Assembly: GCA_902385625.1 (NCBI GenBank)
Contig: CABMGE010000010.1
Span: 39,589 to 103,588 of the forward strand
Reading direction: 5' to 3'
DNA length: 64,000 nucleotides
DNA from: an uncultured archaeon
GTDB taxonomy: Archaea; Nanobdellota; Nanobdellia; Pacearchaeales; GW2011-AR1
The position numbers and the translations under genes are program-made. The notes under the pieces were generated by a model. It was given only the letters and a program-made list of their open reading frames with translations. It had not been told where the DNA came from and searched no databases. Within the stretch, counting starts at the first letter, position 1, and each line of letters opens with the position of its first letter. Below are positions 21,087-30,143 of this stretch, piece by piece.

Positions 21087-22022
21087 TTATAAATGCGGCC
21101 TATCAGAAGCACATACTCTTGATGCAATTTCACTTCCCATATTACCACATTCATCCAATGGAAGGCCTATTAGATATGCGAATAAAAAACCTGATGCATA
21201 AGCATCTCCTGCACCGCAGGTGCTTTTGACTTCTACTGGAATAATTGGTATCCTATATTCTTCAGATACATGACCTACTCTTCTTCGAACAACTGAGCCT
21301 TGACTTCCTTTTTTTAAAATAACTATTCCAGAATAATCAGAAAGAGCCTTAAGTGCATTTAGAGGATTTTTTCCAGTCAATTCTTCTGCTTCACTTTCTG
21401 TTGCAAACAAAATATCAATATCTTTTAATAAATATTCAATTGAACTTCGTTCTCTTTGAATCATTGCTTTGTCTGCAAGGTCAAAACTCAATTTTACATT
21501 GTATTTTTTTGCATATTCTATTGCTTCTTTTGTTTTTTTTGGATTTGTTACAAGTTCATAACCTGAAGTATGGAAAATCCTTGAGTCTTTTAATTTTGAA
21601 AAATCAAAATCAAACTGATTTGCAACTCCTATATCTGCAGTAGTTGTTTTTTCTCCATCTGGAGTAATCATTATATAGCATACTCCGCTTTTTCCATCCA
21701 CTGTATTAATAAGAGAGGTAATATTATTTTGCTGTATTGTTCTTATGTAATTTTCTCCAAAAGAATCATTGCCAACTGTTGCATATAGACCTGTTTTTTT
21801 GAGTCCAAGTCTTGAAGTATTAATTATGACATTTGCAGGAGAACCTGCAGGATATAATTTGAATATTTTTTCATGGATTATATCTGAAAATAATTTTTGA
21901 TCTAAATTTCTTAAAGGAGTATAACTCTCTTTTTTTAGCCCTAGTCTACTTAACTCTTCTTCTGTAATCTCAAATGTCAAGTCAGTCATTGCATTTGAAA
22001 GAGCTATTAAGTCAAGTTTCAT
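21087..22022 (-). CDS. PfkB-family carbohydrate/nucleoside kinase (ribokinase/adenosine-kinase-like)
   Basis: C-terminal STCGAGDAYASGF motif. Track ORF reaches 22040; ATG at 22022 abuts the upstream stop at 22024. Confidence 0.8.
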   Translation of the reverse strand: MKLDLIALSNAMTDLTFEITEEELSRLGLKKESYTPLRNLDQKLFSDIIHEKIFKLYPAGSPANVIINTSRLGLKKTGLYATVGNDSFGENYIRTIQQNNITSLINTVDGKSGVCYIMITPDGEKTTTADIGVANQFDFDFSKLKDSRIFHTSGYELVTNPKKTKEAIEYAKKYNVKLSFDLADKAMIQRERSSIEYLLKDIDILFATESEAEELTGKNPLNALKALSDYSGIVILKKGSQGSVVRRRVGHVSEEYRIPIIPVEVKSTCGAGDAYASGFLFAYLIGLPLDECGNMGSEIASRVCASDRPHL

Positions 22023-22023
22023 T

Positions 22024-24231
22024 TTATTTATACCTAACAAGTATTGATCCTAGTTTATCTTTGATTGATTTAATATTTGAAACATGAAAGTATAAAACAT
22101 TTTGCTTTGATTTTCCCATTGACTCTATACTTCTGCCAAATGTACTGGCTGAACCTACATCAATAAAAACAAAAGAATGATTTCCTTCATTTGAAAACTC
22201 ATCTATTCTCCTATACAGACTACTTGTATCTCCATCAATTTGCCCGTCAGTTATAAAAGTGTAGATTGATTTTCCAGGGGCAAGATCTTTTTTAATTTTT
22301 AAAAAAACACCGCTATTAAAATAAGTATTTCCACATTGAGGGTTCAAAGATACATCTTTTACTGGATGCGATCTTGACTCATAAACTTTAATTAAACTAT
22401 CAAGACCTGAATAGTGAGTTGAATCTGAAAAGTCCACTACTCCGAATTTTAAATCTTTTTTCATAGCTTTGCATACTTTATACAACCCTTTTTGCAAACC
22501 ATATTTTACTCTATTTAATATATCAAATTTACATCCAGTTCCTACATAAGATTTGCTTCCCATTGAACCTGAAGAGTCCTGGAAAAAGACCCAGTTGTCT
22601 GGAATTTCAATTCCGGTTAATTGGCTATTGTAAGATTTTTGAGGTGTTTCTTCTAAAACATATTGGTTTAATTTAAAAAATCCTCCACCTGCTTCAATTA
22701 AAACTGGAAGACCGGTGGATCTTTGAAAGTTTACTATTGGTCCATGATTGAGTCTTGAAACATCTGCAGGGGTTAAGGTATCAGTTCTTACAAGTTTCCA
22801 TCTTTTAGTTGTTCCAAGGCTAAAAGAAACATTTTCCTGAGAAGGATTTCTTACCTCCAGAACATCTGCATTTCTTTTATAGTATTCATCAGCTGCAAGA
22901 GTATCTATTTTTTTAAGCAAATTTTTTCCAGCACCTCCCATGCCATAACCCCCTCCTGAGTTTGCAGCTTCTTCAAGTAAATCATCTGCTTCTTTTGGAT
23001 CAAGTTCTCCAAGTAAATCATCAAGTGTATTTGCCATACTATCACCGTCTAATTCATCCTGAGATTTTTCATCATCAGAATCATCTCCACTTCCACCTCC
23101 GCCAGAGGGATCTGAATCTCCTTCACCTTTCTCTCCACTTCCGCTTCCTCCTGGACTTCCCATGGAATTCGGATCAGGACTTCCTTGTTTTCCTGAAAGA
23201 GACATATAGGGGCTAAGAACTTTCATAAAACCTTTTAATGAATCATATCTCATTGAATAAGTATCAAAAATCTTAGTTAAAGTGGAAATAAAATATTTTT
23301 GATTTATTTCATAATCAGGACTAGTTAAATCATGTATTTTTGCTACTCTTTTTTTATAATCATCTTTATCTATGGATTTTTTTTGTAATTCTTTTAAGTC
23401 CAGTTCTGAAATAAAACCCCTGTACATTTCCTTTATTATGTCAATTGAATCTGAATTTGAAATTTTCTTGGATTTTAAATCATCTAAGAAAAAATCAAGG
23501 GCTTTTTCCCGAATATCAGAATTATTATACGAAAGAGTAGAATACATCCCCCCAATAAGTGATATTGGAATATCTGTTGTTCTGTTATTTGCAGAAATTA
23601 TATAAATTATTGGAAGAATTCCTTTTGGATAGCAAGTGACTGGACTCTTACCTATTTGTCTTTTATTTTTTGCAAAAACAAAACCAAGCTTTTCTTCAAG
23701 ATCATCATTATTATATCCTGCTGTTTTTGATAAAAAACTTATATTTAAAACAACATCCCAGATTAAATTTTTTGAATTATTCACCTTAAGAAGTATATCT
23801 GTTTTTGATAAACCTGGTTCTTTCTTTTTAACACCATCATATAATGCTTTTGATATTTTTCTCTCGTCCTGTTTACTGTTTGGGCAAAGCCAGGGATGAA
23901 GTTGCTCATGAAAATGAACAAACAAAAAATTATCAAGAACAAGATTTGGAAATACTTCTGAAGTTGGAACAGATGGCATAGAATAAAGAAGATGGCAGGC
24001 ATCTTCATATGCAGGAATTATTATATCTTCAAAGTTTTTTCTAAACTTTTTTTCATCAACATTAATAAAAATTCTTTTATTATCAGTATAAGCTTCAAAA
24101 TCTCCCTGTCTTGGTTTTGTTCCGATTATTACAGGTTTATTTGAGTCAAGAGGGGTTGCAAGCCTTACTGTCTCTCTCCATGTGCTTTCAGCATTTTTTA
24201 ATATTTTTAATACCATATTTCCAGTCAACAA
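22024..24231 (-). CDS. HExxH (metallopeptidase-like) N-domain + acidic G/S/D/E linker + vWA domain protein, MoxR partner
   Basis: FHEQLHPW; GSPGGSGSGEKGEGDSDPSGGGGSGDDSDDE linker; MIDAS FFQDSSGSMGS ... TDGQ. Confidence 0.75.
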   Translation of the reverse strand: MLTGNMVLKILKNAESTWRETVRLATPLDSNKPVIIGTKPRQGDFEAYTDNKRIFINVDEKKFRKNFEDIIIPAYEDACHLLYSMPSVPTSEVFPNLVLDNFLFVHFHEQLHPWLCPNSKQDERKISKALYDGVKKKEPGLSKTDILLKVNNSKNLIWDVVLNISFLSKTAGYNNDDLEEKLGFVFAKNKRQIGKSPVTCYPKGILPIIYIISANNRTTDIPISLIGGMYSTLSYNNSDIREKALDFFLDDLKSKKISNSDSIDIIKEMYRGFISELDLKELQKKSIDKDDYKKRVAKIHDLTSPDYEINQKYFISTLTKIFDTYSMRYDSLKGFMKVLSPYMSLSGKQGSPDPNSMGSPGGSGSGEKGEGDSDPSGGGGSGDDSDDEKSQDELDGDSMANTLDDLLGELDPKEADDLLEEAANSGGGYGMGGAGKNLLKKIDTLAADEYYKRNADVLEVRNPSQENVSFSLGTTKRWKLVRTDTLTPADVSRLNHGPIVNFQRSTGLPVLIEAGGGFFKLNQYVLEETPQKSYNSQLTGIEIPDNWVFFQDSSGSMGSKSYVGTGCKFDILNRVKYGLQKGLYKVCKAMKKDLKFGVVDFSDSTHYSGLDSLIKVYESRSHPVKDVSLNPQCGNTYFNSGVFLKIKKDLAPGKSIYTFITDGQIDGDTSSLYRRIDEFSNEGNHSFVFIDVGSASTFGRSIESMGKSKQNVLYFHVSNIKSIKDKLGSILVRYK

Positions 24232-29112: not shown

Positions 29113-29123
29113 CCTGTTTCATT

Positions 29124-30143
29124 TTAATTGTAATTTTCAGATATTGCTTTAAACAGTCCAATTGCTGCTTTTGCAGATTCTTTTCCTCTTGCAACATCAT
29201 CTCCAATCATAAATCGATTATATCCCATTAGTATTCCGCAATAGACATCAAATAATTCTGCACACCTTGGAATCTCATCAATATTTGAGAGAGACTCAAG
29301 CATTCTTGAAGCCATTACTGCTCTTGGATTTGATTTAATTATTTTTTTACACGCAGCAATCACATGATCTGGCTGGTCAACTTCAGTGTATAGATCCCCT
29401 CTTGCAGCCATTAGATCAATTCGATTTTTATATTTAGGATATACAGTATCAATAAATTCAAGTCCTTTTTTTGATTCTATTTTTGCAATTATTCTTGCTT
29501 TTGGATCAATAGATAAAAGATCAGTTATATCACTCTCTTTTTCAACAAAAGAAAGCATGAAATTATTCATTCCAAGACTTTTTCCAGCCTCAATATATTC
29601 TTTATCTTTATTTGTAAGGTATCCTTGAATTACTAAAGATGGATCAGTAATATTTACAGACATTCCAGGCCTTATTCCAATTTGACCTTGCAATGGGAGT
29701 GGAATACCTATTTTTCTTTCAACTGAACCTTCTACAACCAAGACATTATCATTTAATAGGTCTATAATTTGTCCCCTGTAATGAGCATTATCAGTGTAAA
29801 CCTCTGCAGGTTTTGTCACACTTATTTTGTGGCTCAAGGTAATATAATGAAGTTCTTTATCTCTTAGAAATTTTACATTGTAATCATCAACTCGAAGTTG
29901 CCTTGCCTTTAAATCAATCCAAACAGGTTTTAAATCTGCTTCAGATCTTACATGAGTAAGAATTTCCAAGGGAGTTTCTTTTAATCTTTGAGTTGTATTT
30001 AGCCTGACTGATTCCACAATATAACTATCTGCAAGACTTTTAAATTTTGCAAGAGGCGGCACTGTTAATACCATTCTTATTCTTCTCTTAGTCATGTTTT
30101 TGAAGGGGTTTATCATTTTATAAATTTTTCTACATGTTACCAC
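29124..30143 (-). CDS. pyruvate-kinase-like protein, A (TIM barrel) + B domains only, no C domain
   Basis: IIAKIESKKGLEFID, LMAARGDLYTEV, VMASRMLESL align with the PK motifs KIEN.EG, ARGDLG.E, ATQMLESM. Start may be ATG 30116. Confidence 0.7.
   Translation of the reverse strand: MVTCRKIYKMINPFKNMTKRRIRMVLTVPPLAKFKSLADSYIVESVRLNTTQRLKETPLEILTHVRSEADLKPVWIDLKARQLRVDDYNVKFLRDKELHYITLSHKISVTKPAEVYTDNAHYRGQIIDLLNDNVLVVEGSVERKIGIPLPLQGQIGIRPGMSVNITDPSLVIQGYLTNKDKEYIEAGKSLGMNNFMLSFVEKESDITDLLSIDPKARIIAKIESKKGLEFIDTVYPKYKNRIDLMAARGDLYTEVDQPDHVIAACKKIIKSNPRAVMASRMLESLSNIDEIPRCAELFDVYCGILMGYNRFMIGDDVARGKESAKAAIGLFKAISENYN

Follow-up and report, generated by a model that had tools for sequence, protein, structure and literature searches.

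It was not until 2025 that conjugation of a nucleobase to the N-terminus of a protein was demonstrated, in a single system, with Cap9 as the enzyme. This QueC-like protein of the type IV cyclic oligonucleotide-based antiphage signaling system (CBASS) joins 7-carboxy-7-deazaguanine to Gly2 of a CD-NTase with the N-terminus MGGSGGS (Wassarman et al., 2025; bioRxiv 10.1101/2025.04.06.647259). The same type of reaction has been proposed for the QueC-like protein QatC of the QatABCD system, where an N-terminal MGTS motif and a flexible tail are needed for QatB to work with QatC (PMC13279940). Canonical QueC possesses a four-cysteine zinc motif, C(x)8CxxCxxC (PMC13082051). Other described systems are built on proteins with a von Willebrand factor A (vWA) domain. 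The known MoxR–vWA pairs are enzyme activases (PMC9976466), four vWA–MoxR ternary systems have been reported in a study with no mention of pyruvate kinase, QueC or adenylosuccinate (Kaur et al., 2020; PMC7159879), and the TerY-P triad consists of a vWA protein, a Ser/Thr kinase and a PP2C phosphatase (Anantharaman et al., 2012; Gao et al., 2020; summarized in PMC11090510). Here we describe a gene cluster from an uncultured archaeon of the Pacearchaeales, located on a 64,000-nucleotide stretch (the window, to which all coordinates without a locus number refer) of contig CABMGE010000010.1, in which genes for two small vWA proteins (sVWA), a pyruvate kinase-like (PK-like) enzyme and a QueC-like enzyme stand upstream of genes for a divergent MoxR-like AAA+ ATPase and a large vWA protein with an HExxH motif. 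The cluster is a real, conserved and undescribed system.

Conserved gene content and synteny

A preliminary description of this DNA had presented eight open reading frames (ORFs) on the minus strand, which carries every feature of the cluster, as a single coupled operon. All eight were found in place (21087–30143), with junctions of +11, −4 (ATGA), −1, −7, −11, +5 and +1 nt when the start codons chosen in that description are used, and the motifs quoted from them all occur in the translations (AKIESKKG, AARGDL, ASRMLESL, CSGGLDS, GETGVGKT, VIDEINRG, SAQNP, VDNRLL, HEQLH and DSSGSMG). The eight genes are real, each having tblastn orthologs in syntenic loci. For this comparison, loci were fetched around homologs of the AAA+ protein and compared by tblastn, and the synteny was found in approximately 14 distinct loci of DPANN archaea and Acidobacteriota, the latter represented by two bins, one of them with the system on a 339-kb contig among typical bacterial genes. 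The recurrent order is one to three sVWA genes, the PK-like gene, variable genes, orf286, orf249, the AAA+ gene and the HExxH-vWA gene, and these constitute the conserved core. The conserved unit is therefore not the set of eight, as the QueC-like gene, orf183 and the PfkB gene are accessory and the upstream sVWA pair had been left out. The QueC-like gene is missing from archaeal locus L003 and from every bacterial locus, the PfkB gene occurs only in the window and in L007, L010, L028, L031, L035 and L040, and most DPANN loci have a Ham1/ITPase gene and a short ThyA-like gene between the PK-like and QueC-like genes, both of which the window cluster lacks. In all four bacterial loci a PurA gene lies directly upstream of sVWA. 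Chance adjacency of unrelated genes is ruled out by synteny across two domains of life and viruses.

The cluster was not placed in any of the pathways that had been named as possible homes for it. There was no match to CobT, CobS or Mg-chelatase in Pfam or NCBIfam, and no QueD, QueE or TGT/ArcTGT partner among the Pfam-annotated orthologous loci or the cluster genes of the window. PADLOC, when run on the cluster proteins, gave no system match and returned only sub-significant or generic QueC scores. No published description of the gene set was found in literature covering the vWA–MoxR conflict systems paper, the QueC family survey and PurA-like phage genes, and a study of 2,6-diaminopurine association does not describe it either.

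The upstream boundary of the operon had been set at a hairpin (30168–30186; AAAAGACC-UAA-GGUCUUUU, 8-bp stem), which lies between the sVWA1 and PK-like genes. The adjacency of these two genes is kept in the syntenic and viral loci holding both, and in the metagenome loci they are adjacent in most cases and separated or inverted in a few. The 62-nt region of the hairpin folds at −9.7 kcal/mol with a z of −1.2 against shuffles, which is no better than the shuffles, and the hairpin was not detected in a terminator scan. It was rejected as a boundary on these comparative grounds and on its fold, and it may instead be an internal attenuator. Because the sVWA/PK-like adjacency across it is kept in other loci, the unit most likely starts at a promoter/operator-like element upstream of sVWA2 (32399–32486), in which an inverted repeat, TTAGTGT...ACACTAA, surrounds a TTTATA box, and takes in both sVWA genes. 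A second copy of this element (20952–21037) heads the next unit, which consists of small ORFs and an NAD island. The pattern of approximately 88 nt occurs exactly twice in the window and in none of 100 shuffles, and the upstream regions of the two copies are 77% identical over approximately 180 nt, which suggests that the sVWA unit and the small-ORF/NAD unit are co-regulated.

The sVWA hub and its spread in phages

The two proteins at the head of the unit are paralogs sharing 54% identity. sVWA2 (31374–32345, 323 aa) has the N-terminus MGGFSSDYGSSRDYSFSP, starting MGGFSSDY, with DVTGSM resembling a metal ion-dependent adhesion site (MIDAS), and sVWA1 (30206–31201, 331 aa) has the N-terminus MGGSSSDYSSSRDYSFSP, starting MGGSSSDY, with a MIDAS-like DQTGSM, the variant of the motif in these proteins being DxTGS. 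sVWA2 matches phrog_2971 (2.7e-15), and its orthologs precede the PK-like gene in the syntenic loci. The family profile gave nothing significant against PDB sequences and there was no PADLOC match to sVWA. An AlphaFold2 (AF2) model of sVWA1 has a pLDDT score (predicted value of the local distance difference test) of 88, with residues 1–8 disordered (pLDDT < 50), and a Foldseek search of the PDB with this model retrieved SpaC, integrin beta I-like and vWF A1 domains (E 1.7e-7 to 1e-4). By this model the sVWA proteins have a vWA fold.

Relatives of sVWA are encoded in more than 457 stretches of the metagenomes scanned. Partners were counted in 44 newly fetched sVWA loci with adequate flanks, among which a PK-like gene was present in 28, a PurA-like gene in 23, a QueC-like gene in six and a kinase gene in 27, with at least one of the PK-like, PurA-like and QueC-like genes in 42. 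An E1 gene was found in two of these loci and an AAA+ gene in only four, and therefore orf286, orf249, the AAA+ protein and the HExxH-vWA protein form a second layer that has been added to the sVWA hub in a minority of lineages.

Scans of viral contigs (37–485 kb) gave 17 sVWA loci and nine PK-like loci. All nine viral PK-like loci (contigs of 61–485 kb) have sVWA directly upstream, seven have a Ser/Thr kinase gene, which is DnaJ-fused in six, and in two a PurA-like gene follows. Among GenBank phages, sVWA relatives were identified in 142 records, 140 of which are Mycobacterium phages (cluster-C). Mycobacterium phage Colt (L016, MK359359.1, 153316–156786) encodes in succession a Ser/Thr kinase (gp251), an sVWA protein (gp252) starting MGSGAWDSYTYT (MGSG...) and a PurA-like protein (gp253). 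Neither the MoxR-like AAA+ protein nor the HExxH-vWA protein has relatives in the phage collections. The huge-phage contigs (L015/L021, which is LR745208.1 of 485 kb, and L019–L027) carry genes for a DnaJ-fused Ser/Thr kinase, an sVWA protein with a MSESxDY tail and a PK-like protein, and in L015 a Thg1-like gene and an ADP-ribosylglycohydrolase gene occur within 6 kb.

Glycine tail and candidate ligases

The sVWA proteins of the window share their Met-Gly start with their homologs, 33 of 34 of which begin MG(G/S/T/W), one only after correction of a mis-called start. When distinct sVWA N-termini were tabulated, with start codons picked by rule, those with a QueC-like or PurA-like gene nearby comprised 52 with Gly2 and two others, and those with adequate flanks and no ligase gene comprised three with Gly2 and 15 others (Fisher p = 9e-11, without correction for phylogeny). 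This co-variation draws on several unrelated tail families as well as several gene orders, and the tails without the glycine are of the MSESxDY, MYSWGDD and MAEGDDY types.

The ligase proposed for the sVWA N-terminus in the window is the QueC-like PP-loop ATP pyrophosphatase (28246–29112; SGGLDS and Cx10CxxC motifs), in which S56-G57-G58-L59-D60-S61 is invariant across the family. Its identification as a QueC-type PP-loop protein agrees with matches to Pfam QueC (2.7e-9), phrog_1550 (6.5e-18) and the PADLOC 'QueC' model (4e-10), with the limit that the Pfam match extends over the C-terminal part only. The single sequence matched just one PDB entry, Cap9 (9nto_B, E 0.027), and the family profile matched ArgG (1e-5), Cap9 (3.6e-4), QueC (0.21) and also GMP synthase; these matches support an amine-ligase type of chemistry for the enzyme. 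Scores against the QatC models were 0.0024 in PADLOC and 17.8 bits in NCBIfam (cutoff 280). The protein does not class as a canonical QueC (preQ0 synthase), given the three-cysteine motif and the lack of QueD, QueE and TGT partners in the annotated loci and among the cluster genes of the window. The preliminary description had raised protein modification by this enzyme as a possibility, which is specifically supported by the start of the neighboring sVWA proteins, MGG(S), an acceptor-type motif like that of the Cap9 and QatC substrates; the modification itself is at the level of a prediction.

In the PurA-like proteins linked to sVWA, the arginine of the TTGR aspartate loop has been lost in all cases. 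Where Yersinia PurA has GATTGRSRR, the Acidobacteriota proteins have a TSGL, ATGL, ATGQ or ATGA loop and those of phages have WQGKF or WQKEF. Mutagenesis of E. coli PurA is reported to show that this arginine (Arg303) binds the aspartate beta-carboxylate.

PK-like enzyme and PfkB

The PK-like enzyme (29124–30143; Pfam PK, 6e-17), whose true start is probably the ATG at 30098, comprises the A and B domains without a C domain, as had been read from its motifs, and the NCBIfam pyruvate kinase models align with it at 4–323 of 477. It scores 78.5 bits against a cutoff of 306 and does not reach equivalog level, and on this score and the missing C-terminal domain it was rejected as a true pyruvate kinase. 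Across 11 family members R47, N49, D77, K79, K221, E223, D250 and S279 (Thr to Ser) are invariant, and these residues align with the active-site motifs of yeast pyruvate kinase; K221, E223 and D250 correspond to the catalytic Lys, Glu and Asp, S279 to the threonine after MLES, and R47, N49 and D77 to the site for the cation and PEP. Because every active-site residue that could be mapped is kept, the protein is a catalytically intact enzyme and not a relic.

At the other end of the cluster, the PfkB-family sugar/nucleoside kinase (21087–22022), an accessory member, was correctly called, with a full-length match to PF00294 (5.4e-41, residues 43–304), and it reaches no NCBIfam equivalog cutoff. 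In L028 the PfkB gene is followed by genes for NAPRT, nicotinamidase, NadA and NadC directly after the system. PfkB may form a bridge to the NAD salvage island of the window, as a member of the neighboring group of genes for salvage of NAD and nucleotides.

AAA+ ATPase and HExxH-vWA protein

The divergent MoxR/dynein-clade AAA+ ATPase (24237–26105, 622 aa) has an extra C-terminal half of approximately 300 aa. Its Walker A motif (GETGVGKT) and the DE pair of Walker B are invariant in 20 homologs, of which 17 match AAA_7 and 16 match AAA_5, weakly (best AAA_7 match 7e-6). The Walker motifs and the adjacent vWA partner agree with the MoxR assignment made earlier, which is weaker than was claimed, the window protein scoring 17.3 bits against the AAA_5 cutoff of 22. 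With the family profile no PDB sequence was found at E <= 0.01, and 67 relatives besides the window's own were present among 5.8 billion non-redundant protein sequences.

The gene for the HExxH-vWA protein (22024–24231, 735 aa) directly follows the AAA+ gene in every locus covering that position. In the protein, an acidic, Gly-rich linker joins an N-terminal HExxH domain to a vWA domain at the C-terminus, the MIDAS of which is complete. H108, E109, H112, C116, D122 and E123 of the N-terminal domain are invariant, as are the MIDAS residues D552, S554, T636 and D662. The identity given to it earlier holds for its orthologs, which match VWA (1e-7), VWA_2, vWA-TerF-like and VWA_CoxE, while the window's protein itself has no Pfam match; the family profile gave nothing significant against PDB sequences. 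In L004 (4252–9857) an adenosine deaminase gene (A_deaminase, 4e-81) lies between orf249 and the AAA+ gene, along with several paralogs of approximately 300 aa having an N-terminal 'IHIPT.EEIA' motif, which also prefixes the AAA+ ORF.

Orphan proteins and the E1/E2/JAB variant

The three proteins described as having no recognizable family remain orphans, there being no Pfam, PHROG, PADLOC or NCBIfam family for any of them. The accessory orphan orf183 (27698–28249) has orthologs only in L001/L036 and in L004, and the L004 ortholog forms a fusion with a nucleoside diphosphate kinase (NDK, 6e-35). The core orphan orf286 (26838–27698), a proposed adaptor, is found in every MoxR-type locus covering its position, and orf249 (26095–26844), also of the core, always comes after it and has orthologs in the MoxR-type loci. 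The family profiles of both gave nothing significant against PDB sequences. The AF2 model of orf286 has a pLDDT of 90.4, and a fold search with it gave no match in the PDB (best E 0.73) or BFVD.

An exhaustive search of 1.84 billion proteins gave 67 representatives of the orf286 family, and approximately 20 of these are 500–590 aa in length, with an orf286-like domain and, after it, a region containing an invariant HPF...C motif. The C-terminal half of orf286 recurs in such proteins of approximately 500 aa in operons with E1 and JAB genes. These long proteins would be E2-like, judging by motif and gene context, and a profile search for the E2 domain in them found no PDB E2. In L017, an orf286-like long protein is accompanied by JAB, ThiF/E1, a distant homolog of orf249 (E 7e-8), a protein kinase, an NMNAT-like protein and a PK-like protein, the system lying downstream of NadE, NMNAT and NUDIX genes. 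The contig of L038/L041 has QueC-like, ThyA-like, Ham1, PK-like, E1, JAB, an E2-like orf286 fusion, orf286, orf249, PfkB and NAPRT genes without the AAA+/vWA pair, and L073 has E2-like, JAB, E1, kinase, sVWA and PK-like genes. This suggests that orf286 and orf249 couple the hub either to the MoxR–vWA remodeler or to a ubiquitin-like conjugation module. The regulators of CBASS are, in a similar way, of either the E1/E2/JAB or the QueC/TGT kind. A gene of L017 (5579–6148), lying immediately upstream of two E2-like orf286 fusions, encodes a 189-aa protein starting MSMGGGSSG (possibly MGGGSS), which may be another glycine-started substrate.

Genomic setting

The DNA of the window is cellular. Its GC content of approximately 31% is even throughout, it encodes IleRS, IMPDH and LeuA, and close homologs of its proteins come from bins of Woesearchaeota, Pacearchaeota and Nanoarchaeota, which places its source among the DPANN archaea. 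Neither an integrase nor phage structural genes were seen in the window, a search of it for tRNA genes and Rfam families found none, and an exact-sequence look-up of two window proteins returned no record.

Next to the cluster lies a dense island of NAD salvage and biosynthesis genes of approximately 13 kb (7341–19640, minus strand). It encodes NAD kinase, a NadB-like oxidase, a NadR-like NMNAT/RNK, the NMN transporter PnuC, ADP-ribosylglycohydrolase, IU-nucleoside hydrolase, an NMNAT-like protein, NUDIX, NadE, two isochorismatase/nicotinamidase-like proteins and NAPRT. NAD genes also flank or trail the related system in L028, L017 and L041. The machinery points to an unexplained link with NAD and nucleotide salvage in genome-reduced DPANN archaea. 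Between the PfkB and NAPRT genes are three paralogous small proteins of 95–105 aa (19642–19959, 20168–20479 and 20421–20708), without known family, having in common the motif DGL.LKNV.KALERL...PY...AYPVPCP...DAR..VVPWV, and a homolog of these (E 4e-14) occurs beside NadE, NMNAT and NUDIX in L017.

A ThyA-like gene (37139–37870, minus strand) has a weak match to the thymidylate synthase family (Pfam 4e-9), and its product is 29% identical to the short ThyA-like protein that accompanies the QueC-like protein in other DPANN loci; it may be a displaced partner of the window's QueC-like gene. Elsewhere in the window, a 424-aa ORF on the plus strand (33758–35032) contains four to five copies in tandem of a 144-nt repeat that codes for a Cys-rich unit, GGCKGKEECDKFCEDEANFN.C, and has no Pfam match, and two pairs of intergenic repeats were observed, one at 44654–44722 and 59339–59407, beginning with the palindrome TCTCGCTTCGCGAGA, and another at 35572–35627 and 37029–37084.

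Proposed model and rival explanations

The gene content, conservation, folds, motifs and Gly2/ligase co-variation are shown by the data, and from them we infer a two-layer model, which extends to the modification with its chemistry, to what the PK-like enzyme, orf286 and orf249 do, and to the biological purpose. In the first layer, the hub, the two sVWA proteins would present a flexible tail whose Gly2 is exposed after removal of the methionine, with the PK-like enzyme as constant partner. At the expense of ATP, the QueC-like enzyme would bring a carboxyl or oxo group of a (deaza)purine-type base or nucleotide into an activated form, and this activated group would be joined to the alpha-amine of Gly2 of sVWA by the chemistry that Cap9 performs on the CD-NTase and that QatC is proposed to perform on QatB. 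In the bacterial and phage versions a PurA-like enzyme would replace the QueC-like one, activating IMP at C6 and coupling it to an amine. In the second layer, the remodeler, orf286 and orf249 would be adaptors linking the hub to the AAA+ and HExxH-vWA proteins. The latter would hold an acidic or phosphorylated ligand at its MIDAS and may cut with its HExxH domain, and ATP hydrolysis by the AAA+ protein would serve to put together, take apart or activate the complex. The place of the MoxR–vWA pair is taken in other lineages by an E1/E2/JAB conjugation module. Supply or processing of the nucleotide substrate would fall to PfkB (elsewhere to Ham1/ITPase, ThyA-like, NDK or adenosine deaminase). 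We consider it quite possible, falling only a little short of probable, that the QueC-like enzyme modifies Gly2 of sVWA, that the PK-like enzyme works on or with sVWA, and that the AAA+ and HExxH-vWA proteins, through orf286 and orf249, remodel or activate the assembly. The purpose is probably either virus–host conflict or control of nucleotide metabolism.

A broader version extends this to all sVWA proteins as a new class of modification hub, in which interchangeable ligases would attach a purine, deazapurine or nucleotide to Gly2. The ligases would be QueC-like in DPANN, whereas huge phages, cluster-C mycobacteriophages and Acidobacteriota would have PurA-like ones. The PurA-like enzymes would then catalyze a new reaction, IMP C6 with a protein N-terminus giving protein-N6-AMP, the PK-like enzyme together with the Ser/Thr kinase would act further on the tail, in processing or in reading it, and the MoxR–vWA pair or E1/E2/JAB, acting through orf286 and orf249, would add a second level of regulation, in parallel to the alternative regulators known from CBASS. 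We regard this broader version as rather doubtful.

Several observations weigh against the predicted modification of the sVWA tail. The co-variation test ignores shared ancestry and its start codons were chosen by rule, three loci (L067, L071 and L112) have a Gly2 sVWA and no ligase within 10 kb, and L003, which is archaeal, has an sVWA starting MSES and no QueC-like gene. The QueC-like protein has a zinc motif of C249-x10-C260-x2-C263 with no fourth cysteine, and its profile stands at least as near to argininosuccinate synthase as to Cap9; a source of 7-carboxy-7-deazaguanine (QueD, QueE or FolE) was not seen in the scanned part of the window. With approximately 45% identity to canonical PurA, the PurA of Acidobacteriota may have a housekeeping function. 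As for the second layer, the AAA+ protein is below every curated MoxR threshold and the HExxH domain has no detectable peptidase homolog by Pfam on the orthologs or by PDB profile. The flanking NAD and nucleotide salvage genes, finally, fit a metabolic role as well as they fit a conflict role.

It is with these salvage genes that a purely metabolic account begins, in which the locus is part of a nucleotide/NAD salvage supercluster. The PK-like enzyme would regenerate or repair purine nucleotides together with PfkB (and, elsewhere, Ham1, NDK, adenosine deaminase and PurA), the MoxR-like, large vWA and sVWA proteins would be a chaperone/activase set for it, comparable to CbbQ–CbbO for Rubisco and NorQ–NorD for NO reductase, and the QueC-like enzyme would be a small-molecule amidoligase. 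Pyruvate kinase can regenerate the GTP that is used by PurA, and the accessory genes all act on nucleotides. The next 13 kb of the window are a dense NAD salvage island that shares the promoter-like element of the sVWA unit, L028 has PfkB, NAPRT, nicotinamidase, NadA and NadC after the system, NAD genes are tied to the related system in L017 and L041 as well, and activase function is what is known of MoxR–vWA pairs (PMC9976466). This account, however, leaves unexplained the conserved Gly2 tail and its co-variation with ligase genes, the Ser/Thr kinase beside sVWA in 27 of 44 loci, the exchange of MoxR–vWA for E1/E2/JAB and the altered aspartate loop of the linked PurA-like proteins, and MoxR occurs in only four of the 44 hub loci. 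It is the strongest of the rival accounts, and overall it seems to us unlikely.

A conflict or defense role, raised in the preliminary description, remains an inference, as the neighborhoods are not defense islands and the hub is commonest in phages. This abundance is itself the basis for a viral origin, by which the hub would be a phage takeover or counter-defense device that, for example, restores ATP, GTP or NAD pools or masks a host target, and the DPANN and Acidobacteriota copies would be domesticated or prophage-derived. All nine viral PK-like loci have the sVWA–PK arrangement, seven with a Ser/Thr kinase, and there are 17 further viral sVWA loci and 140 Mycobacterium phage records with an sVWA relative, the copy in Colt lying between kinase and PurA-like genes; most metagenomic hub loci, too, are of the kinase/PK/PurA type without MoxR. 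The cellular character of the window (IleRS, IMPDH, LeuA, uniform GC and no integrase or phage structural genes seen) and the absence of the MoxR layer from the phage collections do not fit this origin, which also gives the components no mechanism, and we judge it improbable. Less probable still, and in our estimation very unlikely, is a classical antiviral vWA–MoxR system of the type treated by Kaur et al., in which the vWA protein senses a viral protein, the HExxH domain is the protease effector and the QueC-like enzyme makes 7-deazaguanine for modification of DNA or tRNA and not of protein. A MoxR–vWA pair with extra conserved proteins, the invariance of HExxH and the nearby D and E residues, the known occurrence of QueC-family proteins in defense systems and the rare, patchy distribution across two domains of life would all suit such a system. 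The PADLOC scores are nevertheless sub-significant or generic QueC, third components of the VMAP, iSTAND, FtsH or beta-propeller kind are absent, no TGT/DpdA-type partner was found in the Pfam-annotated orthologous loci, and the neighbors are housekeeping and salvage genes.

If the proposed modification of sVWA is true, it would extend N-terminal nucleobase conjugation to a vWA substrate fold and to archaea, and the exchange for PurA-like proteins would possibly bring in a second enzyme family with new chemistry. It would also give a first role to the PK-like family, to two orphan families (one confidently modeled and with no known structure match) and to a divergent MoxR-like ATPase. With more than 457 metagenomic matches and approximately 140 mycobacteriophages growing on M. 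smegmatis the hub is common, which makes the prediction directly testable, and the trio of the cluster-C mycobacteriophages is the most tractable place for the Gly2-modification idea, as these phages can be cultured.

Comparison with known systems

Domain and profile searches exclude the locus from type IV CBASS, QatABCD, TerY-P, the vWA–MoxR ternary systems and the chelatases, and among the ten cluster proteins there was no Pfam, PADLOC or NCBIfam match to CD-NTase, Cap10, Cap11, QatA, QatB or QatD. The likeness to type IV CBASS lies in a QueC-family PP-loop enzyme beside a partner with a flexible MGG(S) N-terminus, as in Cap9 and its CD-NTase (Wassarman et al., 2025). The partner in the window is a vWA protein and not a CD-NTase, however, there is no Cap10 (TGT) or Cap11 (OGG), the weak similarity to Cap9 (E 0.027; profile 3.6e-4) does not exceed that to argininosuccinate synthase, and the window system also has a PK-like enzyme and a MoxR–vWA pair. 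QatABCD similarly has a QueC-like enzyme with a partner, QatB, in which a glycine motif (MGTS) and an unstructured tail are essential (PMC13279940), whereas the QatC models score below significance here, homologs of QatA, QatB and QatD are missing and the partner is a vWA protein in place of the QatB helical domain.

As in CbbQ–CbbO, NorQ–NorD and RavA–ViaA, the gene for a MoxR/dynein-clade AAA+ protein directly precedes that for a large protein in which a linker leads to a MIDAS vWA domain at the C-terminus, but the AAA+ protein of the window is of 622 aa, sub-threshold and with an unfamiliar C-terminal half, and its vWA partner has an HExxH N-domain without family. The locus matches none of the four vWA–MoxR ternary systems, in agreement with the preliminary description, which knew of no described system with this gene set, its third components being orf286, orf249, sVWA and the PK-like enzyme and not VMAP, iSTAND, FtsH or beta-propeller proteins (Kaur et al., 2020; PMC7159879). 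The phage versions of the hub resemble TerY-P in having a small MIDAS vWA protein beside a Ser/Thr kinase. They differ from it in that no PP2C was seen, the window cluster lacks both the kinase, which occurs only in loci of the phage type, and the phosphatase, and PK-like, PurA-like and QueC-like proteins are not TerY-P members. Related loci that swap the MoxR–vWA pair for ThiF/E1, JAB and an orf286-like protein with HPF...C are reminiscent of Cap2/Cap3 of type II CBASS, although this variant is not in the window and the E2 call is by motif and gene context. PurA-family genes with the same fold are also carried on phages as PurA/PurZ; those described here are tied to sVWA and kinase genes and have an altered aspartate loop, and the window cluster itself has no PurA-like gene. 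In its parts the locus would work like an N-terminal ligation of the Cap9/QatC type joined to a MoxR–vWA pair, and the chance is substantial that something new is represented by the sVWA hub together with its PK-like or PurA-like partners.

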